DNA of 64,000 bases from Brucepastera parasyntrophica (GCF_022376835.1 NZ_CP084606.1:2842739-2906738); one strand, 5' to 3'; counted from the first letter of the stretch, positions 22,772-53,723 are shown. The notes: generated from the letters alone by a model not told the origin. Translations and numbers: made by a program.

Positions 22772-22867
22772 TTATTCGGGGCGAAGGTAATGATTTAACG
22801 GCCGCTTGCGCGGCCTGCGAATACCCCAGACCGAAGGTCTGCCCTGCTCCGCGGCGGGGTATTTTAT
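22772..22867 (+). repeat. Structured intergenic repeat, copy 1 (short form lacking the UUCG-hairpin module).
   Basis: TTATTCGGGGCGAAGG ... GGCCGC-ttgc-GCGGCC ... CAGACC-gaag-GGTCTG ... GGGGTATTTTAT. Confidence 0.7.
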
Positions 22868-22945
22868 CGCAGTTTCTGTAATTATAACCCATTTTTGCCG
22901 ATCCGCAAGTCTATCCTTTCCTTTTATAAAGAATAAACTCCATAT

Positions 22946-23067
22946 TTATTCGGGGCGAGGGTTTAATCAGCCTTCGGCTGGTTCTGTAAGGAAATGATTT
23001 AATGGCCGCTTCCGCGACCTGCGAATACCCCAGACCGAAGGCCTGCTCTGCGGCGGAGTATTTTATT
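22946..23067 (+). repeat. Structured intergenic repeat, copy 2 (full form).
   Basis: TTATTCGGGGCGAGGGTTTAATCAGCC-ttcg-GCTGG...GGAGTATTTTATT. Confidence 0.7.
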
Positions 23068-23143
23068 GCGCCGGTGTTTTTCCTGCTGTATACTGAAGTA
23101 TCCGGTTCTTTCCGGACAGCAATATTTTTACTGGAGTATACAT

Positions 23144-24067
23144 ATGAAAGTCAAGTTATTAAAGCGTGTTTTTCTGATTCTGATTGTCATTTTTGCCGCT
23201 GTTTTCATTCTGAGGTTTATCTACGAACTTTACGGAAGCCGGTATTCGGGCGCAACAAGTTATGAATCATCATACAGCACCGCTTCATACTATGATATGT
23301 CAAACATGACAGGAAAGACCCAGAATTACGCAACCGCCAGGCAAAAGATTGAGGGCGCGGCTGGGGCGTCGGTCAACTACGACCAGAAGTATGAAATGGT
23401 TTCAAATATGACTTCAGACAGTACTGATTTTGAAAACGATGAAAACCTCATCAGAGAGAGAATCGCCGGTTTCAGCGGAATTATTCAGACGGAAAGGTCC
23501 CAGGGACTGGAAGGCTACCGGAGTCTGTGGATTTCAGCCGGTGTTTCTCCCGCGAAATTTGACGAGCTGGTAGAGGGCCTTAAGGAAATCGGGACGCCCA
23601 CCGGTTTTTCCGTCACAAAAACCGATAAAACGGAAGATTTCCGGTTTCTGCTTTCCCACCGGGATTTTCTGATAAAAACAAAGGACGCTTACAGCGCCCT
23701 TAAAACCAGGGGCGGGGACATATCGGACTTTCTCGCCCTTGAAAGCATGATCCTGGAAACCGAGGAACAGATTATGCTGGCCGACGTGTCCCTGGGCGTC
23801 TTTGATGAAAGCCTGTCCCTGTGTACGGTTGAGTTTACCCTGCGGGAAACACAGGAACAGAAAAAGACGGGCGGAATATCGCTTTCATTTATACTGAGCC
23901 GCGCGTGGTATGCCCTTGAATGGACCGTCTCGTTTTATCTTATTGCCCTTGTTTTTGTTCTGGCGCTTGGCTTCGCAGGCCTGGGTATAACCTTTATATG
24001 GGAACGCATTACAGGCGTGTCGGGCCAGAAGAAAAAGGATGACGGAAAGGATGATTCAGCGGAATAA
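23144..24067 (+). CDS. DUF4349-domain membrane-anchored protein (N- and C-terminal TM helices).
   Basis: ATG after GGAG. Architecture typical of DUF4349. Confidence 0.6.
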   Translation: MKVKLLKRVFLILIVIFAAVFILRFIYELYGSRYSGATSYESSYSTASYYDMSNMTGKTQNYATARQKIEGAAGASVNYDQKYEMVSNMTSDSTDFENDENLIRERIAGFSGIIQTERSQGLEGYRSLWISAGVSPAKFDELVEGLKEIGTPTGFSVTKTDKTEDFRFLLSHRDFLIKTKDAYSALKTRGGDISDFLALESMILETEEQIMLADVSLGVFDESLSLCTVEFTLRETQEQKKTGGISLSFILSRAWYALEWTVSFYLIALVFVLALGFAGLGITFIWERITGVSGQKKKDDGKDDSAE

Positions 24068-24126
24068 GAAACATAGTCCTGAAGGACTGAACCGACTTGC
24101 GGTCAGTTAGTAAGAAAGCGGAAGCG

Positions 24127-24150
24127 GTGGAACCGACTGACAGTCGGTTC
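24127..24150. terminator. Bidirectional terminator hairpin between convergent genes.
   Basis: Perfect ggaaccgactg / cagtcggttcc 11-bp stem. Confidence 0.5.
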
Positions 24151-24167
24151 CATTTGCGGACACAGTT

Positions 24168-25322
24168 TCAGAACCTCATTCTGAGTTTCGCGGTGATTTC
24201 AAAGCTGGTATCGGTCGAATCAGGTCCGAGTTCCCCGTGTTTTTCGTTCCCGGAAAAGGTGTCACGGTCAAGCGGTACGCGTCCCGTAAAGCTCAGGGTC
24301 GCTCCCTGAAAAAGATCATGCTCAAACCCGATAACAGGCGAAAAGGAAATATCATCGAGCCCCGCTACGCAGGAAAGGCTGGCGTTCGTATAATCATTAA
24401 ACCGGTACATCAGCATCGCGTACAGGTAATTTCTTTTTTCATAAACGGCTGATGAAAATGATTTTTTTCCGCTGAAAAAATATTCAGCCAGAATATACAG
24501 GCTGCCGTCAAAAAAGGAATAATCAAAGCCCGCGCTTGCCGCGATTCCGTCAAAGCCCGCGCGGTCGCGGTTATCGTACATATAGAAAACTTCCGCGGTG
24601 AGGCCAAGTTCCACTTCCGCCTTTACCGAAAGGCCCGCGTAATGCAGTCCGTCCGGAGTTTCCGCTTTTGGAATTTCATAAGTGTATAGCAGCTGAACAC
24701 TTGCCCTGTCCCAGTGTTTGTCGCCGGACAGGCCGAACAGCGCTCCGTTGCCGTCCTGTTCAAACGCGTTCTTCGGGGCGGCTGCAAAGGCCTGTATTTT
24801 TGAAGTATCGGAAGGATACAGCGAAACTGAGCTTCCGAGGATTGCGCGCGGCCGCGCGTCCGGGTGGAGCGGATTTCTCGGATTCAGAAAATCAGACGGA
24901 CCCCATACCTGTCCGTATCCGAAGGCAAGCCGCATGAGGCCTGCCTCGACATCAAGCAGTTCGCTGTTTATTCTGAAGTAGAGGCGTTCCAGCTCGAGCG
25001 CGGCAATATAGTTTTCTCCTCCGCTGAACGCCGTGAGGGGCAAAGAGTGCGCCGGCGAGTTATTCAGCATTGAAGCGACAAGGGCCGTGCTGCCCGCCGC
25101 TGCGGTCAGATTGAATGAAGTGAAAACCGAGGCGCGCTCGCCGACATTCACCTTCAGGCGGAGATTCGCATATTCTTCAGCGCCGAATCTGATCTCGGAC
25201 GGATCGCTTCCGCCGGCAAGCGTGAGTTTTGTATCAAGCAAGCCTGACAGGACAGGCGCCTGAGCGAAAACCTCCGCGGACAGACAGAGAAGCAGCAAGA
25301 GCAGAAGCGGCGTTTTTTTCAT
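24168..25322 (-). CDS. Putative outer-membrane beta-barrel protein.
   Basis: Signal peptide MKKTPLLLLLLLCLSAEVFA. C-terminal ...LRMRF (terminal Phe). 4-bp overlap with the upstream LolA-like gene. Confidence 0.55.
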   Translation of the reverse strand: MKKTPLLLLLLLCLSAEVFAQAPVLSGLLDTKLTLAGGSDPSEIRFGAEEYANLRLKVNVGERASVFTSFNLTAAAGSTALVASMLNNSPAHSLPLTAFSGGENYIAALELERLYFRINSELLDVEAGLMRLAFGYGQVWGPSDFLNPRNPLHPDARPRAILGSSVSLYPSDTSKIQAFAAAPKNAFEQDGNGALFGLSGDKHWDRASVQLLYTYEIPKAETPDGLHYAGLSVKAEVELGLTAEVFYMYDNRDRAGFDGIAASAGFDYSFFDGSLYILAEYFFSGKKSFSSAVYEKRNYLYAMLMYRFNDYTNASLSCVAGLDDISFSPVIGFEHDLFQGATLSFTGRVPLDRDTFSGNEKHGELGPDSTDTSFEITAKLRMRF

Positions 25323-26070
25323 CGTTCAAGATTCCTCATGCTGAAAACGGAATCGGAAATGGGTTCATCAAGAAGAATGCTGTTCATGACAAAGGTTGTT
25401 TTGCTCCCCTTGCGGAGAAGGTCGCGCATTTCAGATTCTACCGGGAACCGGCGGCCGCCGAAGTTTTCCGCCCGGATCAGTGTATATTCTTTCAGCTTTG
25501 CTCCCGAGAGCGCGTACAGTTCATAATGCAGGAGATCAAAATTTTCCTTGTCAACCCAAAGCTTCTGTTTGGGATAACTCTCCGTTTTTTTCTTCGCGGT
25601 CAGATCAAGTACCCAGACTTCCCTCCCGTTCCATGTTTCGCTTCCGCTTAAAACGGGAGTATAGCGGTCCGAGAGTTTTTCATTATTGATCGTATCCTCA
25701 TAGGAGAGGTCTGAGCCCATCATTGATTCCTTGAGCATGTGTCCCGATATGAGCATAACCTGCTCATTATCCGGCGAGTATACATACAGGCGCCCGCCCT
25801 TTTTGAGATATTTGGTGCCCCTGTCTTCCGGGTTTGTGAATTCGATAAAGCTGTCGGAATTACCCTTTGCTGATGCCTTCATTTTTTTTACATAGGTTTT
25901 ATTCTGATATTCAATTATCATCTCGCCTTCATACTGAATAGTGTCATATACTTCATTATCATCAATTTTTTGAGAATATCCGGCGCTGATAAATTCTGCT
26001 GTCCAAAAAGGTGAAAAACTGAAACGGCGGCGAGAGAGAGTAATACTGCAATGCAGATGTTTTTTTTCAT
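25319..26070 (-). CDS. LolA-like outer-membrane lipoprotein-sorting protein. The frame is broken at a T6/A6 run (25966-25971); the signal-peptide exon lies at 25970-26070.
   Basis: AGGAGG RBS plus MKKNICIAVLLSLAAVSVF. Restoring one A yields ...ILKKIDDNEVYDTIQYEGEMIIEYQNKTYVKK. Confidence 0.6.
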
Positions 26071-26188
26071 TGAAAATACCTCCTGTATTTTTCTGCAGGG
26101 AGTTTTAATTCCCGTATTATATAATGCAATAGTTCAAAGACACCTGTCTTCTGAATTGTATTCCCTGCGTATTCAGCGGTCTGTCCGC

Positions 26189-27724
26189 TTACATCAGGGG
26201 CGCGAAGATGCGCAGTACATCCTGAAGCAGCCGCGGAAAAAAACTGCTTTTGCAGTCCTGTTCGGTAATCTGATGGCATTTTTCAAGAGTCAGCAGAAAA
26301 TCATCCTTTACTTCCATTACCGATGAAGTTTTATACATCCATACTCCGCATTCAAAATGCAGATACAGACTCCTGAAATCAAGATTTGTCGTTCCTACTG
26401 TCGCAACAGTATCATCTGAAACAAAAGTTTTTGAATGAATGAACCCGTCCGTGTATTCATATATTTTGACGCCCGCCTCAATAAGGTCCCTGTAGTAAGA
26501 CCGTGTTGTGATATGAACAATGCGTTTGTCCCAGCGGTGGGGCGTAACAATCCTCACATCGACACCGCTCTTTGCCGCAAGCCGCAGGGCCGAGAGCATA
26601 CTGTTATCTATTATGAGGTAGGGTGTGTTTATATACACATACTTTTTTGCCGTGTTTATGATCTGCAGATATACGTGTTCGCCGACATTTTCCGTGTCCA
26701 TCGGACTGTCAGCGTAAGGCTGGACAAGGCCATCAGCGGAAACCGTACATTCTTCTTCCTTCCAGGGATAGTATTTTGAATAATCTTCCGTATCAGGTGT
26801 GCTTAAGTCCCACATTTGCAGGAACATGAGAGTTAGGCTCCACGCGGCTTCGCCCGTTATCATTATTGAGGCGTCTTTCCAGTGGCCGTGTTTGTCTATC
26901 GCGTTTATATATTCATCGGCAATGTTTATGCCTCCGGTAAAAGCCACCTTTCCGTCGATTGACGCGATTTTTCTGTGGTCCCTGTTATTCTGCTTGGTTG
27001 TCAGAAAAGGTTTGAATGGGTTGAACGCGATGCACTGTATTCCCAGGCTCTGCAGTTTTTGCGGGTACTTATGAGGAAGATCAAAAAAAACTCCGACGTC
27101 ATCATACATTACCCTGACTTCCACGCCGTTCGCGGCCTTTTCCTTAAGTATATCAAGGATCGCGTTCCACATGATGCCTTCCCTGATAATAAAGTATTCA
27201 AGGAAAATATATTTTTCAGCCTTTTTCAATTCTTCGAGCAGATATTCAAATTTCATTTCACCCGGCGTCAGATATTTTGTCGCGGTGCGGCTGTATATGG
27301 GAAAGCCGGCAAAATCCTGCAGGTACCGTATCTGGGGAATATGCTCGGGGGCGTCCCTGCAGGCTGTTTCAAAATGGTTGCCCGGAAGCAGAAAGCGGTC
27401 CCTGCTTTGCGATTCGATGACAGCGAGCTTCTTTTCAAACTTTTTTGTAGAAGTCTGCGCGGTAAAAAAAAGATAAAACAGCCCGCCGAATATCGGAAAA
27501 AGCAGGATGAGGAAAACCCAGGTCAGTTTGTATGCGTCCTTGTCCCTTTTGTTTATTATATACAGCGCGACCAGAACACTGAGTAGAGAGAGAGCCCATC
27601 CGATGAGTTCGGAACTTCTGCTTGTGCTGATTATTGCGTACACGAGAAAAAGCGCCTGCAGGACAATCAGAAAGGCAATAAATAATTTTCTCCGGCAGAA
27701 TAATTCCGATTTTCGATTTTTCAT
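26189..27724 (-). CDS. cls: Cardiolipin synthase.
   Basis: Two N-terminal TM helices and two HKD motifs (DHRKIASIDG...; IHSKTFVSDD...). Confidence 0.85.
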   Translation of the reverse strand: MKNRKSELFCRRKLFIAFLIVLQALFLVYAIISTSRSSELIGWALSLLSVLVALYIINKRDKDAYKLTWVFLILLFPIFGGLFYLFFTAQTSTKKFEKKLAVIESQSRDRFLLPGNHFETACRDAPEHIPQIRYLQDFAGFPIYSRTATKYLTPGEMKFEYLLEELKKAEKYIFLEYFIIREGIMWNAILDILKEKAANGVEVRVMYDDVGVFFDLPHKYPQKLQSLGIQCIAFNPFKPFLTTKQNNRDHRKIASIDGKVAFTGGINIADEYINAIDKHGHWKDASIMITGEAAWSLTLMFLQMWDLSTPDTEDYSKYYPWKEEECTVSADGLVQPYADSPMDTENVGEHVYLQIINTAKKYVYINTPYLIIDNSMLSALRLAAKSGVDVRIVTPHRWDKRIVHITTRSYYRDLIEAGVKIYEYTDGFIHSKTFVSDDTVATVGTTNLDFRSLYLHFECGVWMYKTSSVMEVKDDFLLTLEKCHQITEQDCKSSFFPRLLQDVLRIFAPLM

Positions 27725-27745
27725 AGTTCGCTCCGATTAAACAAT

Positions 27746-29019
27746 TCAGCGCCTCAGGGCTTCCACCGGTTCAATAAAGGCGCTTTTCAGGGAGGGGATT
27801 ATTGTACATATCGCTGAAATAATCACACCGAAAAGAAATCCCTGTACAATATATACCGGCGAAAAATTGAGAAAGATAGTTCCCGCCATCGGGAATTCCT
27901 TTAAGCCTCCGCCGGTGAACGTGTCAAAACTGATCGGGAAGAATGACCCGATCCAGGTAGAAAGACCCCCGACAATACAGCCGGCCAGAGAACCTATTAT
28001 ACTGAGAAACACAGCTTCAAAAAAGAATACCATAACAATTTCCGATCGTGTCATCCCGAGGGCTCCCATCATTCCAATTTCCTTGATCCGTTCATGGATT
28101 ATCATAACCACCGTATTTATTATCAGGAAACTTGCGACAATCTGAAATACCAGGAAGATGATAACAAAAATAATTGTACTCTGCTGCATTACGACAACCC
28201 AGTAATTATCCTGCCATTCCCTTATAACATTGCCGTCCCCCAGCAGGGCTTTTACCTTTCCGGCAATATTTCTTGTATCCTTTTCATTGTCGGCATATAT
28301 GAAAAGCTGCTGGGTACCTTCATCAAGAACAAGAAGTTTCTGAAGACGGTCAAAGGATACCATGATTACCTGTTCGTCATATTTGCGGTAATCGTATTCA
28401 AAAATCCCCACAATTTCAGGGCTCCAGTATTTATCGGAAAACTGGGCGGACACTACTTTGAGCGGGATTCTGTCGCCTATGGCGAGCCCCGCTTTTTTTG
28501 CCATATAAACACCAATCGCGCATTCATTGCTTCCTTTTTGCGGGTATCTTCCGGTCACAAGACCATCGCTCCTGTCAGTCAGATTGAAATTATTGATTTC
28601 TTTTTCGCGGTCTATATCGATTCCCCATAAAAACGCGTGTTTGATTAAACTGTCGGACAGGGTAGCGTAGGCGTTGATTCTCGGAAGAACTGCTTTTACT
28701 CCGGGAACAGCTTCTATTTCCCGGATCAATTCTCCGGTACTCCTTCCGTCAGCTACCGGAAACTGGACAGGATAGTATTCCTTGTCTTCTTCGAACAGCG
28801 ATGATACTACATTCACATGGCCTGTGTCAAAAACACGGACAACATCTTCAATTCCTTTTATCATTCCGTCCATCATCGATTGCATAAATATATTGAAGAA
28901 AACAGCGATACCAACGGCAGCGATGCAGAGAATAGTCCGGCGGAGGTTCCTCCAGATATTTCTGTATGCTATTTTTTTCAGGGTCAGAAACCCGCCTCTC
29001 TTTTTTTTGAAAGTTCCAT
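27746..29019 (-). CDS. Type-VII ABC transporter permease (FtsX/MacB/LolC-E-like). The frame is broken at a T8/A8 run (29001-29008); the N-terminal TM helix is encoded upstream of the track ORF.
   Basis: AGGAG RBS plus ATG 29019. The +1 frame gives FLTLKKIAYRNIWRNLRRTILCIAAVGIAVFF. The C-terminal FtsX 3-TM bundle is present. Confidence 0.7.
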
Positions 29020-29036
29020 ACTATACTCCTGATATA

Positions 29037-32548: not shown

Positions 32549-32549
32549 A

Positions 32550-32978: not shown

Positions 32979-33075
32979 ATGTCAATATTTTTTTTAAAAA
33001 AAAATTAAATAAATATTGAGCTGATGCGTAAAATCCGGGAAGTCATACAGGAAAATATATGGTTTTACCTCATGT

Positions 33076-33198
33076 TTATTCGAGGCGAGGGTTTAATCAG
33101 CCTTCGGCTGGTTCTGTAAGGTATGTAATGGCAGCTTCCGCGACCTGCTAATACCCCGGACCGAAGGTCTGCCCTGTTCTGCGGCGGAGTATTTTATT
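33076..33198 (+). repeat. Structured intergenic repeat, copy 3 (full form).
   Basis: TTATTCGAGGCGAGGGTTTAATCAGCC-ttcg-GCTGG ... CGGACC-gaag-GGTCTG ... GGAGTATTTTATT. Confidence 0.7.
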
Positions 33199-35755: not shown

Positions 35756-35759
35756 CAAA

Positions 35760-38645: not shown

Positions 38646-39500
38646 ATGGTCAAAAAACTATCCGATACATATGAATTGAACAACGGGCTTAAAATACCCT
38701 GTGTCGGTTTTGGCACCTGGCAGACCCCGGACGGAGAGGTCGCTGTTAACGCGGTCAAAAGCGCAATTGAATGCGGTTACCGGCATATTGATACCGCCGC
38801 GGTTTACGGAAATGAGGAAAGTGTGGGGAAGGCTGTCCGCGCCGGTACGGTATCCCGGGATGATATCTTTATCACAACAAAATTATGGAATGATGAGCAT
38901 GGATATGAAGCCGCGTTAAAAGCCTGTGACGTTTCACTGGAAAGGCTCGGCGTCGATATTATCGATCTGTATCTGATTCACTGGCCCAATCCGATAAAAT
39001 TCCGCGGCAGCTTCGAGCGGACAAATGCCGAAACCTGGCAGGCAATGGAAGAATTATACCAGGCGGGAAAGGTAAAGGCTATCGGTGTGAGCAACTATCT
39101 TCCGCATCATCTTGAATCATTGCTGAAGACGGCGAGGATTATGCCGATGGTCAACCAGATCCGACTGTTTCCCGGGTATACCCAGAAGGAAACAGTAAGT
39201 TACTGCCGGGAGAAAAATATTCTTATTGAAGCGTACAGTCCTCTGGGGACTGGGAAGCTGCTTGACGCTCCTGAACTTGTTCCAATAGCGGAAAAATATT
39301 CAAAATCTCCCGCCCGGATATGTCTCCGCTGGAGTCTGCAGATGGGATTTCTTCCTCTCCCGAAATCGGTTACCGCTTCCCGGATTAAGGAAAATGCCGA
39401 TATTTTTGATTTTACGCTGTCGCCCGCCGAAATGGACATACTGACTAATATGCCGAACCATGGCGGAGACGGCATGAATCCTGATGAAGCTCCGTTTTAA
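38646..39500 (+). CDS. Aldo/keto reductase (2,5-diketo-D-gluconate reductase-like).
   Basis: LNNGLKIPCVGFGTWQ, HIDTAAVYGNE and IHWPNP motifs. Confidence 0.85.
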   Translation: MVKKLSDTYELNNGLKIPCVGFGTWQTPDGEVAVNAVKSAIECGYRHIDTAAVYGNEESVGKAVRAGTVSRDDIFITTKLWNDEHGYEAALKACDVSLERLGVDIIDLYLIHWPNPIKFRGSFERTNAETWQAMEELYQAGKVKAIGVSNYLPHHLESLLKTARIMPMVNQIRLFPGYTQKETVSYCREKNILIEAYSPLGTGKLLDAPELVPIAEKYSKSPARICLRWSLQMGFLPLPKSVTASRIKENADIFDFTLSPAEMDILTNMPNHGGDGMNPDEAPF

Positions 39501-41291: not shown

Positions 41292-42394
41292 ATGAGCAGG
41301 GACCAGAGTTTTTCACTAAAGTATAATAAGTTTATTTTCAGGGCGGCCTTATGCCTTCTTATAGCTGAAGCGGTATATATGATAATATCATTTGCTCCCG
41401 CGCTGCCTCTTTTTTTGAGCTGCTGAAACAGGCCGGTACAATTTCAACAGACGAGGCAGACAGGCTGCTTGCGGAAAAAATACTCCTTAATCCCGTACAT
41501 TTCCAGTTTCTGTGTTTTATATCCCTGCTGCTTCTTTTTTTGGGATTGTTCCGAAAATATATAATTCCCACCGTAATCAATGTAAAAATTCCATCAAGAT
41601 TCTATACACCGATGGATGTCAACTTTGATAAATCACAGTTTTATAAACTGCTTGAATCGGACCCCCAGTATGAAAAGAGCATGCAGGATGCAAGAGATAA
41701 CAAGGCTTATGAACGCAAAGCGAAAACCTCTTTTTTGTTCACCTCCATTATGCTGATAGTGGTCTACTATATTTCGCTTGTTTTGTTCAGAGGGCCTGTT
41801 CTGGATACTTTAACAGGATTGTACAGACCCGGAAATCCGGTGGCAATGGTCATTGATTTTCTGCATAAAACATTCAGAAGCAGTCATGAGATTTCCGGTT
41901 TTACCTCTAATCTGTTTAACGCGATTCTTTCCGGAATACTGTTTCTCGGCATTATAGTTCCTTTTATTACGTTCTTCAGAAGAAGAGATGAAACAACAGC
42001 GTACAATATTGAGACTTTTACGGACGCCCGGTGCTACTGTGATGAGTGCGGCTGGGCCGGTGTGGATATTCTCAAGACAACCAGTTCGGTTAAAATAAAC
42101 AGGGTTAAAACCGACAGAAAGAAAAAGTATGTTCCCATAAAGAATGTGTATATAGACACTATATCAAGAAGTACCGGGGCCAAAGAAAAAAGCACTCTGA
42201 AATCGACAACATACAAGGTTTATGAGTACGATATTTTTGAAGCTACCTATAATGACACATATAGCTGCAGGCAGTGCGGCAATATAACATCAGGTACGCA
42301 TACGGAAAAAGAATTTGGCAAGGATGAGTATATTACGACAAAGGATATGCACTGGAATGGTAACTACCGTGATCCGAACCTTGAACAGGCTTGA
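41292..42394 (+). CDS. Hypothetical membrane protein with a C-terminal Cys-rich (zinc-ribbon-like) region. The frame is broken at a T7 run (41410-41416).
   Basis: MSRDQSF... then, after the frame correction, ...LFFELLKQAGTISTDEADRLLAEKILLNP.... CYCDECGW...CRQCGN. Confidence 0.5.
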
Positions 42395-43361: not shown

Positions 43362-43390
43362 CATGCCGGATGTGTTCCTGCATTTAAGAG

Positions 43391-44074: not shown

Positions 44075-44077
44075 TCC

Positions 44078-44214
44078 TTATTCAAGGCGAGGGTTTAATC
44101 AGCCTGCGGCTGGGTCTGTAAGGTATGTAATGGCCGCTTCCGCGGCCTGCGAATACCCCAGGCCGAAGGTCTGCAGCTCTTCGAGCTGACTGCTCTGCGG
44201 CGGAGTATTTTATT
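44078..44214 (+). repeat. Structured intergenic repeat, copy 4 (full form plus an extra hairpin CAGCTCttcGAGCTG).
   Basis: TTATTCAAGGCGAGGG...GGCCGC-ttcc-GCGGCC...CAGGCC-gaag-GGTCTG...GGAGTATTTTATT. Starts 4 bp after the upstream stop and overlaps the stop of 44210..45121. Confidence 0.7.
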
Positions 44215-45121
44215 TTAAAAATCCGTTTATAATCTGTTCGATGGACTCTTCCTCATCCAGGCCTAATGTCATAAGTTTGATAATCTGTTCTCCCGCAATC
44301 TTTCCGATAGCGGCTTCATGGATCAGGGACGCCTCGCTGTGGTTCGCGGTTATTTCGGGAATGGCCTGTACGCCTGCATTATCCATGATTATTGCATCAC
44401 ATTCGGAATGCCCCATACAGGAGGCGTTCCCGTTTATCTTTGAGAGAAAAATCTGCCTGGAATCCCCTTTTGCAACGGAGCGTGAACTGACTGTTGTGGC
44501 TGATTCCTTTCCGTCCAGATTAATCAGAAATTCAGTTTCCGCAGTCTGGCGTTCATGGGTCATCAGTTTTTCTTTTATAACAAGTTTTGCTCCGTCCTTA
44601 AGCTCGGCCCTTGTTATTCTTTTTGTTGAATCAACGCCTTCTATCTGGACGGTATCCATTTCCATATAGCTTCCGGGTTCCATATATACATTTGTTACGG
44701 GATTGAGTATGCGCTGGCCGCTTCCCTCACCATAATGTTTTTCCCTGTATACAACCCGCGCATTTTCCGCAATATGGAAAGTATGGATGCCATCATGCCG
44801 GGAGGCAGCTTTTTCATTATTATGGATTCCGCATCCGGCTATTATCGTAACATCCGCATTTTCACCGATATGAAAATCATTGTACACGGTTTCACCGATC
44901 CCGCCCTGGCTGATAATAACGGGAATATGTACATGTTCGTGTTTTGTTCCCGGTTTTATATAAATATCCATGCCCGCATTATTTTCTTTCGGCACGATTG
45001 AAATATCTTCCGTACTGCCTGAACCTATACTGCTTCCGTTTATTCTGATGTTATAGGCGCCCTTCGGTATATTCATTATACCGGAAATCTTTTGCAATAT
45101 TTTTTTCTGTATGTCATTCAT
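44210..45121 (-). CDS. SufB/SufD-family Fe-S cluster assembly protein.
   Basis: UPF0051/SufBD C-terminal beta-helix region. Adjacent to a SufC-like ATPase. Confidence 0.6.
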   Translation of the reverse strand: MNDIQKKILQKISGIMNIPKGAYNIRINGSSIGSGSTEDISIVPKENNAGMDIYIKPGTKHEHVHIPVIISQGGIGETVYNDFHIGENADVTIIAGCGIHNNEKAASRHDGIHTFHIAENARVVYREKHYGEGSGQRILNPVTNVYMEPGSYMEMDTVQIEGVDSTKRITRAELKDGAKLVIKEKLMTHERQTAETEFLINLDGKESATTVSSRSVAKGDSRQIFLSKINGNASCMGHSECDAIIMDNAGVQAIPEITANHSEASLIHEAAIGKIAGEQIIKLMTLGLDEEESIEQIINGFLK

Positions 45122-45270
45122 ATATACTCCGTAGACTTGGTACAATACTGATTTAAGCCATCAAGGTTGAATCAGCATTGCCTGTCAGGCAGGTTTATTA
45201 TACTTCCTTGCCTGACGGTACTTAGAATTGGAATTCCCGTCATTCCTGATGAAGACAGGAATACATCATC

Positions 45271-45984: not shown

Positions 45985-46035
45985 TGGAATCCTCCTTTGG
46001 ATTATTTTATCCCGGCATTAAGGGGTAATAAAAAA

Positions 46036-46076
46036 GACTTTTAACAAAACGGATTATCCGCTTTGTTAAAAGTCTC
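46036..46076 (-). terminator. Hairpin (14-bp stem) followed by a U-run on the minus strand, 50 nt upstream of sufC. Candidate leader attenuator or expression platform.
   Basis: agacttttaacaaa / tttgttaaaagtct stem. The plus strand has an A-run immediately before it. Confidence 0.4.
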
Positions 46077-46348
46077 GTTACCCGGAAGATTGTCTTTTGC
46101 TCTTCCGTAAGCCGCACAGCCAGGCCTTCCGCCAGTATGTTGACTTGTGCGTTTCAACTACTCCCTTTCAACCTGATTATAATATACACCCGCGGCCCGG
46201 CAATATTCAAGGGGCCTGGTATAGCAGGAGAGGATATGTCATGAGAAAACACCGGTTTTTACCTGAATTTACACGTTTTTTACGCTTTATGTGCTATACT
46301 GTATCCTGTATGAACAGCGGAAAATGTATGATGGAAGGAGTAAGTTTT

Positions 46349-48055
46349 ATGAAAACAAACAGGTTCATTCAAATGCTGCTATGTGCTTTGGGTATTGTTT
46401 TTCTGGCGTCCTGCAATACCGGCGGTGATTCCGGAGAGAATCCTGTGAATAATAAGGGAGGTGATACCGTTCCCTCGGTTTCCCAGGTTCCCGACGCGGC
46501 CGATATTCTTGATACCATAACGGCCCTGAAAGTTTCCCTTTCCGGAGTCGATACAACGGAAACATGGACAACATACACCGATATAGCTCTGGCGGACGGC
46601 GCTACGGTGATAACCGGAACCGGGGCAACAGTCGCAGGCGACCTGATTACTATTTCAGATCCGGGAACCTATATGCTGAGCGGGACCCTGACCGACGGAC
46701 AGGTTCATGTTAATGATGTTGGCGACAATGTTTATCTGATACTTAACGGCGCTAATATAACCTGCTCAAACAGCGCTCCCCTCGCCATTTTCGGGAGCAA
46801 GAAAAAGGTAGTAACTCTTGCCCCCGGAACCACCAATTATTTAACCGACGGAAGCGTCTATACCGTATTTTATAACAGCAAAAATGATGAACCGAACGGA
46901 ACCCTCTTTGCAAAAAAGGCGCTTACCATAAATGGTACGGGAACCCTGTATGTTAACGGTAACTTTAATAACGGTATATCCTGTAAGGACAACCTTGTAA
47001 TACTCAACGCGACCGTTATAGCATCTTCTCCCAATAACGCCCTGAAGGGAAATGATTCGATTATAATAAAGGACGCGGATGTTACCCTCACATCGGATGC
47101 CGACGGCATGAAATCCGACAGTGACGACGACGGCCTCGGATATGTTTATATTGATAATTCTTCCGTAACCATAACCGCGGTAAATGACGGCATAGATGCG
47201 TTCCGCTCGGTGCGCATTGCGGGCGGCGTTTTTGATATTACCACAGGCGGCGGCAGCAATGCTGTCCATGCCGACGATGACAGCAGAAAGGCAATAAAAA
47301 GCGATATGGACATGCTCATTGAAGGCGGGACTTTCAATATTAATGCCTATGAAGATGCGCTCCGTTCCAAGGGATCAATGGTTCTCTCCGGCGGCACGAT
47401 GAATTTGTCTTCAGCCAATGCCGCTGTCCGCGCGGAAGACCTCCTGCTGATAGACGGCGCGGATATTACCATTACCAAATCAACGGGCGGATTCAGGGCA
47501 AAGAAAATTGTCATGAATGACGGTGACGCAAACATAATTTCATCCGGATACGGAATATATAATACGGGGGCAAACGTGGCGGACCCCGAAAACACTACGA
47601 GCTTTACCGTTATTTCCGGCGGAGATGTTTCAGTCAATGCCGTCCAGGAATCCTTTTATTCTCCGGGCGTTCTGCAAATCGCCGGGGGAAAGGTGTCTGT
47701 CCACGCTCCTGTTGATCCGGCGGATGAGCCGCTTTCAGTTGCGGGCCTGGTTATTAACGGCGGTACACTTGCCGCTCCCGGTCCGGAAGGAAACGTTATT
47801 ATTCCGGCAAAGAATTCGGAACAGCCGAGCGTACTTGTTACATTTAATACCGCGGTAAACGCGGGCGATGTTCTTGAACTTAAAAATGCGGGCGGAACAA
47901 CCCTTGTAAACTATACCGCAGCGCGGGCGTATAACTCCATTCTGATAAGTGAACTTCAGCTCGTGTCCGGTTCAAGTTATTCAATAGCGCTGAACGGTTC
48001 ACAGGTCAAGACTTTTAAAATGTCGGGAAAGGTTCTGCGCGTTAGCGTTAACTGA
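46349..48055 (+). CDS. Lipoprotein with a right-handed beta-helix of Cthe_2159-like (carbohydrate-binding) type.
   Basis: GGAAGGAG RBS plus ATG 46349. Lipobox FLASC. Repeated DG..s.....I.gG units. Confidence 0.55.
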   Translation: MKTNRFIQMLLCALGIVFLASCNTGGDSGENPVNNKGGDTVPSVSQVPDAADILDTITALKVSLSGVDTTETWTTYTDIALADGATVITGTGATVAGDLITISDPGTYMLSGTLTDGQVHVNDVGDNVYLILNGANITCSNSAPLAIFGSKKKVVTLAPGTTNYLTDGSVYTVFYNSKNDEPNGTLFAKKALTINGTGTLYVNGNFNNGISCKDNLVILNATVIASSPNNALKGNDSIIIKDADVTLTSDADGMKSDSDDDGLGYVYIDNSSVTITAVNDGIDAFRSVRIAGGVFDITTGGGSNAVHADDDSRKAIKSDMDMLIEGGTFNINAYEDALRSKGSMVLSGGTMNLSSANAAVRAEDLLLIDGADITITKSTGGFRAKKIVMNDGDANIISSGYGIYNTGANVADPENTTSFTVISGGDVSVNAVQESFYSPGVLQIAGGKVSVHAPVDPADEPLSVAGLVINGGTLAAPGPEGNVIIPAKNSEQPSVLVTFNTAVNAGDVLELKNAGGTTLVNYTAARAYNSILISELQLVSGSSYSIALNGSQVKTFKMSGKVLRVSVN

Positions 48056-48095
48056 AAACAGGAAAATCTATTTGCCGGGTCTGAGCGCCCTGCAT

Positions 48096-48144
48096 ACAAA
48101 AAACGGTACTGTTCTGCTATACTGCAGGCAGTACCGTTTTTTGT
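48096..48144. terminator. Bidirectional terminator.
   Basis: Perfect 15-16-bp stem acaaaaaacggtactg / cagtaccgttttttgt with an A-run on the 5' side and a T-run on the 3' side. Confidence 0.65.
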
Positions 48145-48151
48145 ATATTTC

Positions 48152-48394
48152 TTAAAAAGGTTCCTGATAAAATTCTTCACCTTCCGGGACCACCTGTTCG
48201 TTTTCCGGAAAAATTTCCGTATCAACAGGCGGGCTTACCGGGGTATCGTCATGGGGAAGGTCCAAAAGATTTTCCATACTTCTCTGGACTCTGGCTTCAT
48301 AACCGCCCTTTGACCAGTAAATAAATCCGCCGACAAGAAATGCTATAATAAGAGTCCAGAAAATTACCGTGCTGAGCTTTATTTTTACAGGCAT
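48152..48394 (-). CDS. Small membrane protein (one TM helix).
   Basis: ORF with a VIFWTLIIAFLVGGFIYW helix. Confidence 0.45.
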   Translation of the reverse strand: MPVKIKLSTVIFWTLIIAFLVGGFIYWSKGGYEARVQRSMENLLDLPHDDTPVSPPVDTEIFPENEQVVPEGEEFYQEPF

Positions 48395-48617
48395 TTATTT
48401 CTCCTCAGTTCCGTGGAATAAACCTTTTGAAAAGCCCTGAACTATATTTGATATACCTGATGTATTTCAGGTGAAACTTAAGAGCTATTGCCGGAGAACA
48501 GACTTGAACTGTCACGCCGATCACTCAGCAAGGGATTTTAAGTCCCTGGTGTCTACCAATTCCACCACTCCGGCAATTATGATAGTATATTATCCGATTA
48601 TTTCACGGAGGTCAACA

Positions 48618-49528
48618 ATGTTCAGTGACACGCACTGCCATCTTACCTATATAAAAGACAGGGGCGAAAATATTTCTCCGCACATATCGGAAATGAAAAA
48701 GGAATCTTTCCGTTTTGTTCAGGACATAGGAACAAAGCCGGGAGATCTGCAGCCGCGGATCGAAACCGTTATTAATGAAGCGGGGGAAATTCCCGGGTTT
48801 CTGCATTTTTCCTGCGGACTCTGGCCTGCCGCGGATATAATTGCGGACCGTGACAATTCACTTTTTCTTCTTGAAGAGGATATAAAGATTCTGACCGGAA
48901 AACAGAAGGCTGCGGTTCTCGGTGAATGCGGACTTGACCGTTACTGGAACGGTCCTCCGGCAGCTGAAAGAATCGCCGCCCTGCGGAATAGCGGCGGAAC
49001 TTCTCCGGACGATGACGGTCCCGGGACAACCGATATAAAAGGAGAGGAAGATCTTTTCGGACGCCAGCTTGATTTGGCTCGTAAATATGATATCCCAGTG
49101 ATTATCCATTCCCGGGACGCCTTTGAGCCGACATATGAAATAATAAAAACGCAGGCTATGACTGCGGGGTAATACACTGTTTCAGTTATGGGGTTGCCGA
49201 GGCGAGGGCCTTCCTTGATCGGGGCTGGTATATTTCTTTTCCAGGGAATATTACCTGGCCAAAAAAAGAAGCTGACAAAGGCCGGGTTTCTTCCCTGCTC
49301 AGGTTTGTTCCCCGCGACAGGCTTCTCCTCGAAACCGATGCTCCATATCTCACGCCGAACCCCTTCCGGGGTAAACCGAATACGCCTCTGTTAATCAGAT
49401 ATACATATGCCTGCGCCGCCGATATTCTCGGTATAACAATAGAAAGGCTCGCGGATATTGTATATGAAAATGCCTGCGGCCTGTTTTTAAAGCAGAGCTG
49501 TACTGAACCAGGGAACATACGTAATTAG
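48618..49528 (+). CDS. tatD: TatD-family metal-dependent hydrolase. The frame is broken at a G4 run (49166-49169).
   Basis: N-terminal MFSDTHCHL. After the correction, ...HCFSYGVAEA...PRDRLLLETDAPYLTPNPFRGKPN. Confidence 0.7.
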
Positions 49529-51316
49529 CATGAGAATTACAAACTGTACGAGAAGATAGGGCAGGATATTTTTTGCAATTTTCATAACCGGTTTGTCAAA
49601 GGTATAACTTGCGATAAAAAGGTTCAGTCCAACCGGGGGTGTCAAAAATCCCAGGGCAAGGTTTGACAGAAAAATTATTCCCAAATGAACGGAATTAATT
49701 CCGAAAGATTCCGCAATAGGTATTATCAGAGGCGACACTACAAGAATGGCCGAGTAAAGGTCCATGATGCAGCCGACCACCAGAAGAAGAATGTTAAGCA
49801 GGAAAAGAAACAGATACTTTGAGTGAACAAAAGAAATAACAAATTCTGTAAGCATATAGGGGATTCCGGCGTCAATCATAAAGTAGGCAAGGCCCTTGGC
49901 CGCGCCGATAATTATCAGCACCCCTCCCGCGACCGGTATGCTTTTTAATATAACCTGAAGAGATGCCTTAAGCGTGAGATCCTTCCTGATTACAACTTCA
50001 AGAATAAACGCGTACAGAGCCGCGAACGCGGCAGTTTCAATAAGAGAAAATATCCCGGAGAAATACAGAATAACAATGCCGATAGGCATCAGCAGCTCGG
50101 CAAACCCGCCTTTCAGGGAATCCCAGAGCTGCCTGCCGGAAAATCTGGTCCTCTCGACAGTAGATTTTCCCTGAACTATCCCGATAATGATCATCGAAAG
50201 GGCCAGCAGAATTCCCGGAATAATACCTCCCTTGAATAAATCAAACATTTCAACGGAATAAATATTGGTCGAACCGTAAATAATTATCGCAAGGCTGGGA
50301 GGAAAAAGCAGCCCAATGGAACCCGAGGCGGTTACCAGAGATTCCGCCTTTTCCTGCTTATAACCGCTGCCGGTTAATATAATCGTGAGAAGGGAGCCTA
50401 GTGCAAGAATTGTTACTCCCGAAGCCCCGGTAAAGGTAGTGAAAAATGTCGCTACAATAACTGTGGCAATTACCGGTCCACCCTTTATCCAGCCCACACT
50501 GCTTTTAACGACTTCCAGCAGCCGTTTTCCCGCGCTTCCTTCCGCCAGCAAATATCCCGCCAGCGTAAAAAGGGGAATGGTTGCAATGTTTTTGTCTATC
50601 AGCATGTTATATGATTCAAGCGCAATAACTTCCACATACCCGCCGTTTTTACTGAACGCAACGTATGCTATTCCGGAGAAGACAAGAAAAATAGGCATAC
50701 CAAACAGCGCGCCGATAATAAGAATAATGACCAGAGGCCAGACCAGAATATCCGTTGCAGAAATCCAGGCATTGAATATCGTCTGTAAGAATTCCGGACT
50801 GGGCAGATGCAGGTAATATAAAATTCCCGAAAGAGGTCCGGTCGAAATGAGTATGCCGAAAATAATACCAAGTATTGACGCGATTTTTTTCGGCCGGCGT
50901 TTTACCGCCATAAACAGCATGGCAAAATACATGAGCGGAAGCGACAGGAAAATGACAGGGTAGGGTATCCCCCATAGTCTGTCACCGGGCTGAAAAGCCA
51001 TAAACAGTTCGGAGAAGGCAGTAAAAAAGAGGGCTGTCAGAATTGCGGTCGTCAGCCCCGATATTACCGGTTCCGTAAAACGCCGCATTTTATCGGGAAG
51101 TATCCTGTTAATCACATCCAGACTGATATGTTTGTTTTCCGCCCAGGTAAGAATACCCGCTATATTGGCGAATATAAAAACCAGGTGAACAATAACCATG
51201 TCGGAAGAACGCAGTGTAATGCTGTCGTTTAACGACAGCATTTTAAACACAAAGGGGAAAAGTGCCAATAAAATAAGAAGAATTACCCCGGTAGCTTCTG
51301 CAAGTTTGCGCAGCAT
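49487..51316 (-). CDS. tatQM: TRAP transporter fused small/large permease (TatQM / DctQM fusion).
   Basis: 609 aa: a DctQ-like 4-TM N-terminus plus a DctM 12-TM domain. Confidence 0.75.
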   Translation of the reverse strand: MLRKLAEATGVILLILLALFPFVFKMLSLNDSITLRSSDMVIVHLVFIFANIAGILTWAENKHISLDVINRILPDKMRRFTEPVISGLTTAILTALFFTAFSELFMAFQPGDRLWGIPYPVIFLSLPLMYFAMLFMAVKRRPKKIASILGIIFGILISTGPLSGILYYLHLPSPEFLQTIFNAWISATDILVWPLVIILIIGALFGMPIFLVFSGIAYVAFSKNGGYVEVIALESYNMLIDKNIATIPLFTLAGYLLAEGSAGKRLLEVVKSSVGWIKGGPVIATVIVATFFTTFTGASGVTILALGSLLTIILTGSGYKQEKAESLVTASGSIGLLFPPSLAIIIYGSTNIYSVEMFDLFKGGIIPGILLALSMIIIGIVQGKSTVERTRFSGRQLWDSLKGGFAELLMPIGIVILYFSGIFSLIETAAFAALYAFILEVVIRKDLTLKASLQVILKSIPVAGGVLIIIGAAKGLAYFMIDAGIPYMLTEFVISFVHSKYLFLFLLNILLLVVGCIMDLYSAILVVSPLIIPIAESFGINSVHLGIIFLSNLALGFLTPPVGLNLFIASYTFDKPVMKIAKNILPYLLVQFVILMLITYVPWFSTALL

Positions 51317-51319
51317 AAA

Positions 51320-52375
51320 TTAGTTCCGGAGTCCTTTTACGGTTTCCTGTATCTTATGGTAAAGCGGAACACTGACTGCTCCCGGAATTGTTTTTGAAAT
51401 GTTTTCCACATCTTTATCAAATTCAGCTTCCCACTGTTTTAATTCCGCCGCCGTCGGCTGAATCATGGTTACGCCGTCGGCTTCCATTTTTTCAATGTAA
51501 TAGTTGTCTGCGTCATCAAGCGAAACATCAAGGCGCTTTCTCATTTTATCCACGGCTTCCAGCATGGCCGGTTTATATTTATCAGGCACCTGCGCCCACG
51601 ATTCATTTGAAATAACGAAGCCGGCCATAACCGGACACAATTTTGTGTCCAGCGCGTAACTGATTGCCTTTGAGAAGCCGGTTACATATGCATACATATG
51701 AACCCCGAAAAAACCCCGGACTCCGCCGTTACTTTTCAGCGACTGTAAAACCTTTGCCGACTGCATGTCTTCAATTGTAAAGCCCGCTGTCCTGAAGGCG
51801 TCGCCGAGAATGGGGCTGTCAATTCCCGCAGATGCAATTTTTATCTTTTTCAGCTCGCTCAGATCTGAAAATTTGTCCTTTGTATAAAAGGAAAGCCATC
51901 CGACATTTGTCCAGGCTATCATCTGAAAGCCGTTTTTTTCATATTCTTTTTCAAGCTCGGGACCCACTGTATCCAGAACAGCATTCAGTTCTTTCTGGTT
52001 CTGGATAAGAAAGGGAATTGAAAAAGTATAGATCGAGGCTGAAGGCACTACTTCATATAATCCTATGGTGGTCAGAATAGCCCCGTCCAGAGGTGCCTTT
52101 TGACCGGGACGGGCGGAACGGAATTTCTGTATAACGCTTTTTTCTCCTCCGAGGGAGTTCGCGTCATAAAAGGTTATCTGTACTTCGCCGTTGGTAATTT
52201 TTGCCCATTCCTGAGCGAGCGCCCTCTGTTCAATATCCCAGGGCGACCTGCTCGGCGCCACCGACGCGATTTTCAAATGGACCTTAGCCTGTGCCGAAAC
52301 AGAAAAAAACAGGACGCTGCAGAAAAAAGTGATGCTGACAATCTTTTTCATATTCATAATGGTTTCCTTACTCAA
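51320..52375 (-). CDS. tatP: TRAP transporter periplasmic substrate-binding protein (TatP / DctP-like).
   Basis: Signal peptide and DctP-family fold motifs. 8-bp overlap with tatT. Confidence 0.7.
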   Translation of the reverse strand: MSKETIMNMKKIVSITFFCSVLFFSVSAQAKVHLKIASVAPSRSPWDIEQRALAQEWAKITNGEVQITFYDANSLGGEKSVIQKFRSARPGQKAPLDGAILTTIGLYEVVPSASIYTFSIPFLIQNQKELNAVLDTVGPELEKEYEKNGFQMIAWTNVGWLSFYTKDKFSDLSELKKIKIASAGIDSPILGDAFRTAGFTIEDMQSAKVLQSLKSNGGVRGFFGVHMYAYVTGFSKAISYALDTKLCPVMAGFVISNESWAQVPDKYKPAMLEAVDKMRKRLDVSLDDADNYYIEKMEADGVTMIQPTAAELKQWEAEFDKDVENISKTIPGAVSVPLYHKIQETVKGLRN

Positions 52376-53330
52376 GAATAAAATATTCTTTATTTTGTTT
52401 CATCCAGTACGCCTGCTCCTGGGAAAGGATAATGGCTAGTCTGTTTTCAGGCTGCAGGTCCGGATCAATAGCCAGAGCCTTGTCAATATATTCATCAAAT
52501 CCGGCGCTGTCCTGAGTGGGGATGCAGAAATTCTGTACATAGGCCAGATAGGTTGAGGGACTTAACCCCCTGGAGTACTCCAATGCGTTCCGGTAGGCGT
52601 CTTCGGCTTTTTCAAAACCGCCGCCAAGCGATTCTGGGGCTGCTGCGTAAAATGCTGTCAGGACTTCCCATATCGCGCCGTTATTAAAGGCAGGATCAAG
52701 TTCCACTGCCCGTTCCAGCATGGCAAGCCCTCCCGGCACGTTTTCCAGATATATCGGTTCAACAGGATTAAGGGAAAATGCCGCCAGCGTGCCGCTTCCT
52801 GCCCAATATAATGCCGCAACATCATTTTTGTTACATTTTGCGAGCATTTTTTGCGCATTCGTTTCATTCTTTCCGAAGACGGCCTCGGTAAACGCCGGGT
52901 ACCGGTGATTCAGGCCGACCAGGACATAGTCCTTTCCCCTGACATAGAAATTCTGGGCCCTGAGATAGGCCGCATCCTGCTCATCAAATTTGTCATAGGG
53001 GAGCCGGGAAGCCGGCTGCTGGACAAACACATTCGCATACATGATATACAGCTGGCCGGTCATTATGGCCAGTCCCTCATGTCCGGGGTTCTGCAAATGC
53101 ATGATTTCATATAATTTGAGCGCGGTCGGGAAAAAATCCCTGACAAGCTGGGGGTCGTTTTCGCCGGTAAGGGCTATCATGGGATTTGATTCCTCATTTA
53201 TTCCGGCTGCCTTCTCCGAAGAGGGCGCGAGCATATCGGCTATGGAATTAAACGCCAGTTTTTTGATTGAACAGCCCGAAACAAGTATTACTGTGAATAC
53301 AGTCAACGCCAGGTAAAAAACTTTTCTCAT
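52368..53330 (-). CDS. tatT: TRAP-transporter-associated TPR lipoprotein TatT.
   Basis: Start MRKVFYL. Lipobox VSGC. All-helical TPR-like protein sitting immediately upstream of tatP and tatQM. Confidence 0.6.
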   Translation of the reverse strand: MRKVFYLALTVFTVILVSGCSIKKLAFNSIADMLAPSSEKAAGINEESNPMIALTGENDPQLVRDFFPTALKLYEIMHLQNPGHEGLAIMTGQLYIMYANVFVQQPASRLPYDKFDEQDAAYLRAQNFYVRGKDYVLVGLNHRYPAFTEAVFGKNETNAQKMLAKCNKNDVAALYWAGSGTLAAFSLNPVEPIYLENVPGGLAMLERAVELDPAFNNGAIWEVLTAFYAAAPESLGGGFEKAEDAYRNALEYSRGLSPSTYLAYVQNFCIPTQDSAGFDEYIDKALAIDPDLQPENRLAIILSQEQAYWMKQNKEYFILE

Positions 53331-53617
53331 ACGGTTAATTCCTTTTTCCATTCCGCCAGAAAGTGTTCGTAGGCCGCTATGGTCGCCGAGACGGCGGTAT
53401 CCTGAAGCTGGCCTCGTCCTTCTACATCATTTCCATCGATTATGTACAGACTGCGCAAAATGCCTTCAATATCTTCAATAGTACATTCGGGATCATGATT
53501 TTTCCGTCGGTGCAGACCTCTGGTTTCTTCTTCAAAAATCTGCCGGTATTTTTCGTCAAATGCACTGGTTGTCTCACACATTAGTAAAAATATAGTAGTT
53601 TTTTTGATGACTATCAA
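53327..53617 (-). CDS. Small hypothetical protein, translationally coupled (ATGA) to tatT.
   Basis: ORF only, acidic. Possible internal start at MCETTSAF. Confidence 0.35.
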   Translation of the reverse strand: MIVIKKTTIFLLMCETTSAFDEKYRQIFEEETRGLHRRKNHDPECTIEDIEGILRSLYIIDGNDVEGRGQLQDTAVSATIAAYEHFLAEWKKELTV

Positions 53618-53626
53618 GTATAATTT

Positions 53627-53723
53627 TTATTAGAGGTGAGGGTTTTATACCCGAGACCAATTCCACGGGAGAGCAAAATACTCCAGACCGAAGGCCTGCC
53701 TGCTCTGCGGAGGGGTATTTTAT
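53627..53723 (+). repeat. Structured intergenic repeat, copy 5 (divergent 5' half, conserved 3' core). Ends 6 bp before the ATG of 53730.
   Basis: TTATTAGAGGTGAGGG ... CCAGACC-gaag-GCCTG ... GGGGTATTTTATT. Confidence 0.6.

Follow-up and report, generated by a model that had tools for sequence, protein, structure and literature searches.

Five modular intergenic repeats of Brucepastera parasyntrophica as probable transposase-less derivatives of IS200/IS605-type insertion sequences

Five co-oriented repeats and their surroundings

We analyzed a 64,000-nucleotide stretch of the genome of the spirochete Brucepastera parasyntrophica (GCF_022376835.1, NZ_CP084606.1:2842739-2906738; hereafter the window, with positions counted from its first nucleotide), focusing on a family of five structured intergenic repeats that an initial annotation had placed on its plus strand. 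Reading of the window and a MAFFT alignment with long invariant blocks bore out their number, positions, and orientation: the five copies are homologous, intergenic, and all on the plus strand. A family profile run over both strands of the window with nhmmer matched these five copies (E = 3e-25 to 5e-45) and revealed no sixth one on either strand. The 5′ arm motif was matched five times in the window versus 0.09 expected, and the 3′ core motif four times versus 0.15 expected. Pairwise, the copies are 83-95% identical.

All copies follow one layout. The first base of a copy is the position next to a flanking TTTAT (four of five copies; CTTAT for copy 4), and its last bases are TTTAT in all five. 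After the left boundary, the 5′ part consists of T-C-(N8-9)-GGGTTTAAT, hairpin H1, a stretch ending in TTTAAT, hairpin H2, and TGCG. The 3′ part consists of AATACCCC, hairpin H3 as a nested insert, CTGC-TCT-GCGGCGG, and G(G/A)GTATTTTAT, so that the last ~34 nt of each copy read AATACCCC…CTGC-TCT-GCGGCGGGGTATTTTAT. The subterminal hairpins, H1 and H2 near the 5′ end and CTGC-TCT-GCGG(CGG) near the 3′ end, all lie on the plus strand. Terminal inverted repeats are absent, since neither end is an inverted copy of the other (TCGRGGCGAGGG... versus ...GGRGTATTTTAT). Counted on the sequences, the linker between the left boundary and H1 is 18 nt (19 nt in copy 5) and that at the right end is 10 nt.

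The copies differ in their modules in the way initially described. Copy 4 (44082-44213; 132 nt) is the most intact, with H1 at 44100-44112, H2 at 44132-44147, H3 at 44159-44173, an additional perfect nested hairpin (CAGCTC-TTC-GAGCTG) at 44174-44188, the right-end hairpin with TTTAT at 44190-44213, and the flanking CTTAT at 44077-44081. Copy 1 (22776-22867; 92 nt) lacks H1; it has H2 at 22800-22815, AATACCCC at 22820-22827, and H3 at 22827-22841, its last part (22844-22867) comprises the right-end hairpin, the linker, and the terminal TTTAT, and its flanking TTTAT lies at 22771-22775. Copy 2 (22950-23066; 117 nt; flanking TTTAT, 22945-22949; terminal TTTAT, 23062-23066) has H1 at 22968-22980, H2 at 23004-23019, and H3 at 23031-23045, the latter two with one mismatch each, and a small deletion partly merges its H3 with the right-end hairpin. 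Copy 3 (33080-33197; 118 nt; flanking TTTAT, 33075-33079; terminal TTTAT, 33193-33197) has H1 at 33098-33110, H2 with two mismatches at 33130-33145, and H3 at 33157-33171. Copy 5 (53631-53723; 93 nt; flanking TTTAT, 53626-53630; terminal TTTAT, 53719-53723) represents a variant subfamily, in which the left half TAGAGGTGAGGGTTTTATACCCGAGACCAATTCCACGGGAGAGCAA stands in place of H1 and H2 and a CCCG...CGGG hairpin begins 19 nt from the left boundary; its H3 lies at 53684-53698.

The loops proved smaller than the UUCG and GAAG tetraloops proposed at first, since the only pairing registers are CAGCC-TTC-GGCTG for H1 and CAGACC-GAA-GGTCTG for H3, which have UUC and GAA triloops. One palindrome type, CAGnCC-TTC-GGnCTG, covers H1, H3 read as its reverse complement, and the additional hairpin of copy 4; within the window, it is confined to the repeats. 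The modularity of the family is thus the nested gain and loss of such small palindromes, in either orientation, on a scaffold of a left end and a right end, and in copies 2, 3, and 5 point decay is seen in H2 and H3. Several copies are probably no longer mobile.

The genes flanking the repeats are unrelated in function (ATC-hydrolase-like, DUF4349, GntR, HAD hydrolase, YdeI/OmdA-like, SufD, and TrpR-like). Copies 1, 2, 3, and 5 occupy three divergent intergenic regions, and copy 4 a convergent one. Copy 1 has its 5′ end 5 nt away from the ribosome-binding site of the ATC-hydrolase-like gene (22263-22760, minus strand). Copy 2 stops 77 nt short of an ATG, copy 3 is placed between the predicted divergent promoters of the GntR-like (minus-strand) and HAD-like (plus-strand) genes, and copy 5 sits between a TATAAT box and the start codon of the TrpR-like gene (53730, plus strand), 6 nt from the ATG. 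Copy 4 begins 3 nt past the stop codon of a plus-strand gene. These gene-relative positions agree with the initial annotation. The positions of copies 1 and 5 are those that insertion at TTTAT targets within A+T-rich control regions would be expected to produce. Copies 1 and 2 had been described as lying in tandem; they are indeed adjacent, with 78 bp between them, but their flanks fail to align, so that they did not arise by a simple tandem segmental duplication.

Copy 4 serves as a natural experiment. The stop codon of the minus-strand sufD gene (44210-44212) falls within the terminal TTTAT of this copy, and the C-terminus of SufD, GFLK*, is the same in relatives. When copy 4 was removed in silico by joining CTTAT to TTTAAAAATCC, as excision by the transposase TnpA would do, the SufD end ...GFLK* was restored, and the convergent genes then had their stop codons only 3 nt apart. 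Copy 4 therefore entered sufD in its final codons, and the TTTAT at the end of the element now appears to supply the sufD stop codon. No related repeat was found in the sufD surroundings of Breznakiella homolactica (21 kb) or of another relative (5 kb), and the SufD of the window is ~72% identical to its nearest relatives. As a separate observation on this gene, SufD (44210-45145, minus strand) is 66-68% identical to Lachnospiraceae homologues versus 71% to that of the spirochete Breznakiella, a pattern that hints at acquisition of the suf genes by horizontal transfer.

A shared right end in metagenomic insertion sequences

Relatives of the repeats were sought with the invariant 3′ 20-mer of the window copies, which covers the 3′ arm of their right end. 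The scan of metagenomes with this seed gave 59 loci, ~18 of which form one coherent group with unrelated flanks, mostly from a few Joint Genome Institute (JGI) metagenomes that we take to be termite-gut samples. All loci of this group carry a perfect 13-bp hairpin, AATACCCCGCTGC-TCT-GCGGCGGGGTATT, followed by TTTAT. The 33-nt hairpin sequence AATACCCCGCTGCTCTGCGGCGGGGTATTTTAT recurs unchanged at 10 unrelated metagenome loci and in near-identical form at another 8. The window copies have in common with it AATACCCC, CTGC-TCT-GCGGCGG, a linker of 10 nt, and TTTAT as the terminal motif. Because the seed covered the 3′ arm only, the match of the 5′ arm is an independent confirmation of the relationship. 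At one locus (L024), a middle of the copy-5 type (24 of 24 nt) is joined to the right-end hairpin without interruption. Scans with a 22-nt core gave one chance match, in a Polaromonas coding region, in the genome collection and none in the metagenomes, the core being an unsuitable seed as H3 is specific to the window lineage. Scans of viral contigs with the 5′ arm and the 3′ end yielded chance matches only.

Directly 5′ of the hairpin, six metagenome loci (L013, L015, L045, L063, L064, and L065) carry a gene for a protein of 148-153 residues. The L013 and L015 products match the Pfam family Y1_Tnp (E = 1e-34 to 1e-36), and the full-length products of L013, L015, L063, and L064 score 126-130 bits (cut-off 55) with the NCBIfam model NF033573 for IS200 transposases; with the model for REP-associated tyrosine transposases (RAYTs; NF047646), in contrast, the related transposases score 23 bits against a cut-off of 80. 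The L065 product was found by its homology to the L013 TnpA (85% identity) and has a precomputed Pfam Y1_Tnp match, and L045 retains only the last 50 residues, which are 84% identical to the L013 TnpA. At these six loci, the hairpin forms the right end of an IS200-type insertion sequence of ~585 bp (among them L015, 1908-3777; L013; and L063-L065), which encodes a transposase of 153 aa and has a matching hairpin at its left end. The right end of the window copies (AATACCCC, CTGC-TCT-GCGGCGG, GGTATTTTAT), its boundary included, is the right end of the elements at L013, L015, L063, and L065. Although the TnpA proteins have diverged to 64% identity, the end hairpin has been retained.

The left ends of these insertion sequences are organized in the same manner. 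Upstream of the transposase gene, the sequence reads TTTAT/TCCCTTGGGGTCTAATACC-CCGCCGC-TCT-GCGGCGG, with the slash marking the boundary and the hairpin in the same orientation as at the right end. The left and right hairpins co-vary: both ends of L064 carry CCGCCC-TTCA-GGGCGG, and those of the other elements CCGCCGC-TCT-GCGGCGG. One pair of the end stem is swapped from GC to CG in 5 of 15 end sequences, and the end helix is 91% paired, compared with 43-62% in slid controls. The H2 hairpin of the window copies (GGCCGC-TTCC-GCGGCC) likewise carries a GCCGC/GCGGC stem. The linkers between the left boundary and the hairpin foot and between the hairpin foot and the right boundary are 19 and 10 nt at L013 and L015 and 18-19 and 10-11 nt at L063, L064, and L065.

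The boundaries were also informative. Similarity among these elements ends at the terminal TTTAT, the flanks beyond it being unrelated, and the elements sit after a TTNAT target motif. The left-flanking and right-terminal pentamers differ in two of them (TTGAT/TTTAT at L063 and TTAAT/TTCAT at L064); therefore, these pentamers are target and terminal motifs rather than a target-site duplication. TTTAT and TTCAT are the target motifs of the Geobacillus IS200/IS605 elements ISGst2 and ISGst5 (PMC10055086). Possible pairing of guide sequences with the target or terminal motifs yielded no confident assignment.

The same metagenomes also contain transposase-less derivatives of ~135 bp that consist of a left end and a right end (L012, L027, L029, and L058), and a single-hairpin form of ~45 bp occurs at L005, L036, and L050. 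Both forms correspond to the palindrome-associated transposable element (PATE)-like elements described previously (PMC10055086, PMC3119063). The acetate kinase encoded next to the L015 element is closest to Ruminococcaceae/Oscillospiraceae proteins (74% identity to the best named match), indicating that this lineage of insertion sequences extends beyond spirochetes.

Origin and mobility of the repeats

These findings make it likely that the five repeats are non-autonomous, transposase-less, PATE-like elements of B. parasyntrophica derived from the IS200/IS605 family. The initial suggestion of a mobile element resembling miniature inverted-repeat transposable elements (MITEs) or repetitive extragenic palindromic (REP) sequences is thus essentially right and can be narrowed to an element with an IS200/IS605 right end, while the suggestion of a selected RNA structure or an undescribed cis-regulatory or terminator module is not supported. 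Likewise, this sequence family is indeed absent from the libraries searched, Rfam included, but the kind of element is well known. From their sequences, the window copies are probably relics, many of them decayed.

The likeness to the IS200/IS605 family, with IS608 as the model, lies in the subterminal hairpins on one strand at both ends without terminal inverted repeats, in probable insertion 3′ of a pentanucleotide without duplication, and in the Y1 HUH transposase of the related full-length elements. The linkers of IS608 are 19 nt at the left and 10 nt at the right (PMC3597680), compared with 18-19 and 10-11 nt in the related metagenomic elements and 18-19 and 10 nt in the window copies. 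Unlike typical family members, the window copies lack a transposase gene, H3 divides their right-end hairpin in two, and H1 differs from that hairpin. PATEs are gene-less IS200/IS605 derivatives known from Haloquadratum (PMC3119063) and Geobacillus stearothermophilus (PMC10055086). The window repeats resemble them in being short intergenic elements made of a left end and a right end, presumably mobilized in trans, and in their target motifs, TTTAT and TTCAT being those of ISGst2 and ISGst5. They differ from them in their host, a spirochete of the Treponemataceae, and in being unusually modular, with extra small palindromes. In addition, many PATEs derive from elements bearing TnpB or IscB with a guide (omega) RNA, whereas the relatives found here are of the tnpA-only IS200 type, so that no guide RNA is expected.

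Single-strand transposition has an established mechanism in IS608, ISDra2, and ISGst. Applied to the window repeats, this mechanism would involve a Y1 HUH TnpA supplied in trans, a dimer of which would bind the subterminal hairpins of the top strand, here the plus strand. TnpA would cut 3′ of the flanking TTTAT on the left and 3′ of the element's own terminal TTTAT on the right, and the single-stranded circle so released would be re-inserted 3′ of another TTTAT in single-stranded DNA, typically at a replication fork. No target duplication would arise, and the orientation of insertion would be strand-specific, which would explain the shared plus strand of the five copies. The cognate insertion sequence would have the ends TTTAT/TCGRGGCGAGGGTTTAAT... 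and ...GCGGCGGRGTATTTTAT/, and an empty site would consist of TTTAT followed by the right flank, with TTATT unduplicated; at sufD, the junction would read ...AATAATCCTTATTTTAAAAATCC.... As a side effect, the right-end hairpin and T-run would give the element a 3′ end resembling a plus-strand intrinsic terminator. A sequence pattern of this kind, a hairpin followed by a T-run, is found at the 3′ end of copies 1, 2, and 4 and not of copies 3 and 5, and the uninterrupted metagenomic hairpin has a perfect 13-bp stem followed by TTTTATT. The right end of copy 4 may now terminate both of the convergent genes that flank it. The peel-and-paste steps of hairpin binding, cleavage, circle formation, and insertion at the fork are established for the family (PMC3597680, PMC10055086).

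Several observations weigh against this interpretation. The homology of the left ends is weak and partial: the left arm of the window copies, TCGRGGCGAGGGTTTAAT, has TC...GGGTTTAAT in common with the left ends of L063 and L064, but a hidden Markov model of the metagenomic left ends gave no significant match at the window 5′ arms, and a motif tuned post hoc (TTNAT-N6-9-GGGTYTAAT) matched copies 2 and 3 only, versus 0.03 matches expected. The 64-kb window contains no IS200-type tnpA. A search with the L013-type TnpA returned only metagenome proteins among its best 120 matches, with no Brucepastera homologue among the matches listed, and the host of the L015 element looks like a member of the Oscillospiraceae, not a spirochete. 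In the window copies, the right-end hairpin is interrupted by the 15-16-nt nested H3 (AATACCCC-[AGACCGAAGGTCTGC]-CCTGC-TCT-GCGGCGGGGTATTTTAT), and H1 at the left is unlike the right-end hairpin, whereas the hairpins at the two ends of active IS200/IS605 elements are usually near-identical; it may therefore be that the copies are fossils that no longer move. The flanking pentamer equals the terminal one in four of the five copies, which is compatible with a 5-bp TTATT duplication. Finally, the shared strand of all five copies would arise by chance with a two-sided p = 0.06, and neither GC skew nor GC skew at third codon positions (GC3 skew) gave a leading-strand signal in the window.

We weighed this interpretation against other origins. 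Every window copy has TTATT at its two ends, as would be the case if the repeats were cut-and-paste MITEs mobilized by a DDE transposase with duplication of a 5-bp TTATT target, and a duplication model would account equally for the preserved stop codon of sufD at copy 4. Such an origin is nevertheless extremely improbable, given the absence of terminal inverted repeats, the unequal pentamers of copy 4 (CTTAT versus TTTAT) and of L063 and L064, and the Y1 HUH rather than DDE transposase encoded by the related autonomous element. ERIC, Correia/NEMIS, RUP, BOX, and bcr1 of the Bacillus cereus group are comparable repeats of ~100-150 bp, intergenic, with internal indel variants and possible effects on transcription. 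ERIC, Correia, and RUP, however, have the terminal inverted repeats and target duplications of DDE-mobilized MITEs, and the present family has neither; for bcr1, a TTTAT direct repeat has been reported at the ends. Another parallel is provided by REP/REPIN palindromes, which are dispersed and maintained by a single-copy, domesticated RAYT rather than being MITEs derived from insertion sequences. Like the window repeats, these are hairpin-forming and intergenic, are sometimes clustered, as copies 1 and 2 are, and are served by a Y1 HUH enzyme acting on single-stranded DNA; RAYTs are related to IS200 TnpA and likewise act on hairpins, and the automatic JGI label of the related transposases is "REP element-mobilizing transposase RayT". 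We still regard a REP/REPIN origin as very unlikely: the model scores place the related transposases with IS200 and far below the RAYT cut-off, and the proteins are encoded on many short contigs, like multicopy insertion sequences. Furthermore, their genes lie between left and right hairpins in direct orientation with target and terminal motifs, whereas a RAYT gene is single-copy and lies between inverted REPs, and the window copies are composites of 92-132 nt, not 20-40-nt REPs or the inverted doublets that REPs often form. A GTAG-type head was not noticed when the copies were read, although no search aimed at GTAG heads was made.

Paralogous small RNAs, or a cis-acting leader or attenuator on the plus strand kept by selection on its RNA helices, would account for the shared strand, for the terminator-like 3′ end (a stem and T-run) of copies 1, 2, and 4, and for the location of copies 2, 3, and 5 upstream of plus-strand genes; in addition, three single changes in the hairpin UGCUCUG-CGG-CGGAGUA keep pairing through G-U on the plus strand only. 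Location upstream of a plus-strand gene is, however, automatic in a divergent intergenic region, as is the case for copies 1, 2, 3, and 5. The compensatory variation initially reported was not recovered, as RNAalifold gave a two-sided change in none of the 30 predicted pairs and an unfavorable (positive) covariation term. Nor did G-U wobble reveal the proposed selection at the RNA level: the single changes in H2 and H3 produce two wobbles and five breaks when read on the plus strand versus four and three on the minus strand, favoring neither strand, which is what neutral transitions would produce. Fold energies were no better than those of shuffled sequences on either strand (z = +0.01 to -2.2 for single copies). 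Rfam 15 gave no match at the gathering score, and the only weak match, to a snoRNA model from nematodes, reached 13-19 bits where the cut-off is 52. No conserved promoter was found before the copies, where similarity begins abruptly at TTTAT, and the predicted promoters put copy 3 outside both neighboring transcripts. The sharp boundaries at TTTAT point to DNA insertion, the neighboring genes have no common function, and an insertion sequence with a transposase gene ends in the same 3′ module. Together, these results make a structured RNA family highly improbable.

For the IS200/IS605-derived repeats themselves, a further idea concerns the small palindrome CAGnCC-TTC-GGnCTG, which would have colonized the element three times, as H1 at the left, as H3 in the right-end hairpin, and as the extra hairpin of copy 4. 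Such hairpin turnover might reflect retargeting to a different TnpA, or co-option as a strand-specific or bidirectional terminator or insulator, for example at the junction of sufD and the ydeI-like gene. In that case, the copies would be more than fossils. We offer this as a speculative and rather unlikely proposal.

Other features of the window and implications

The window contains further repeated or unusual sequences. A 20-bp palindrome, TTACACA-N6-TGTGTAA, occurs four times (9783-9802, 9814-9833, 12872-12891, and 13043-13062) versus 0 expected, and its copies bracket the gene for an 819-aa surface protein with cadherin-like and Listeria-Bacteroides-repeat features (10072-12531); these palindromes look like putative operator sites. 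The perfect palindrome TGTCCATTATAATGGACA occurs twice with a variant (57247-57293 and 57360-57406, ~110 bp apart) in an intergenic region upstream of a minus-strand ankyrin-repeat gene and is likewise operator-like in appearance. A 946-aa protein encoded at 54163-57003 on the minus strand is made up of ankyrin repeats over nearly its whole length (12 stretches; Pfam Ank_2, E = 1e-127), which is unusual in a free-living bacterium. Two adjacent large plus-strand open reading frames (2201-4852 and 4849-8226; 883 and 1125 aa) show internal repeats with a period of ~75 nt and GG..I.GN-like motifs; they have no Pfam match and may encode beta-helix surface proteins. Three open reading frames of 284 aa each (8334-9188, 38646-39500, and 41540-42394) were considered as a multicopy transposase and rejected, since they share only 17-22% identity and their common length is a coincidence. 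A single tRNA-Leu(UAA) gene (48488-48575, minus strand) is the sole Rfam/ARAGORN match in the window.

Peel-and-paste single-strand transposition and PATEs are established biology. For B. parasyntrophica, what had appeared to be a new structured RNA family becomes, on this interpretation, a family of mobile elements, which should help to avoid mis-annotation as small RNAs or riboswitches in Treponemataceae genomes, and the exact boundaries of the element, which starts after TTTAT and ends at TTTAT, are now defined. Copy 4 would provide an example of a terminal motif of insertion-sequence type that replaces the target motif and keeps the stop codon of the host gene. More broadly, the occurrence of one IS200-type lineage with a highly conserved end hairpin in a spirochete and in Oscillospiraceae-like bacteria of related habitats points to horizontal spread of this lineage.

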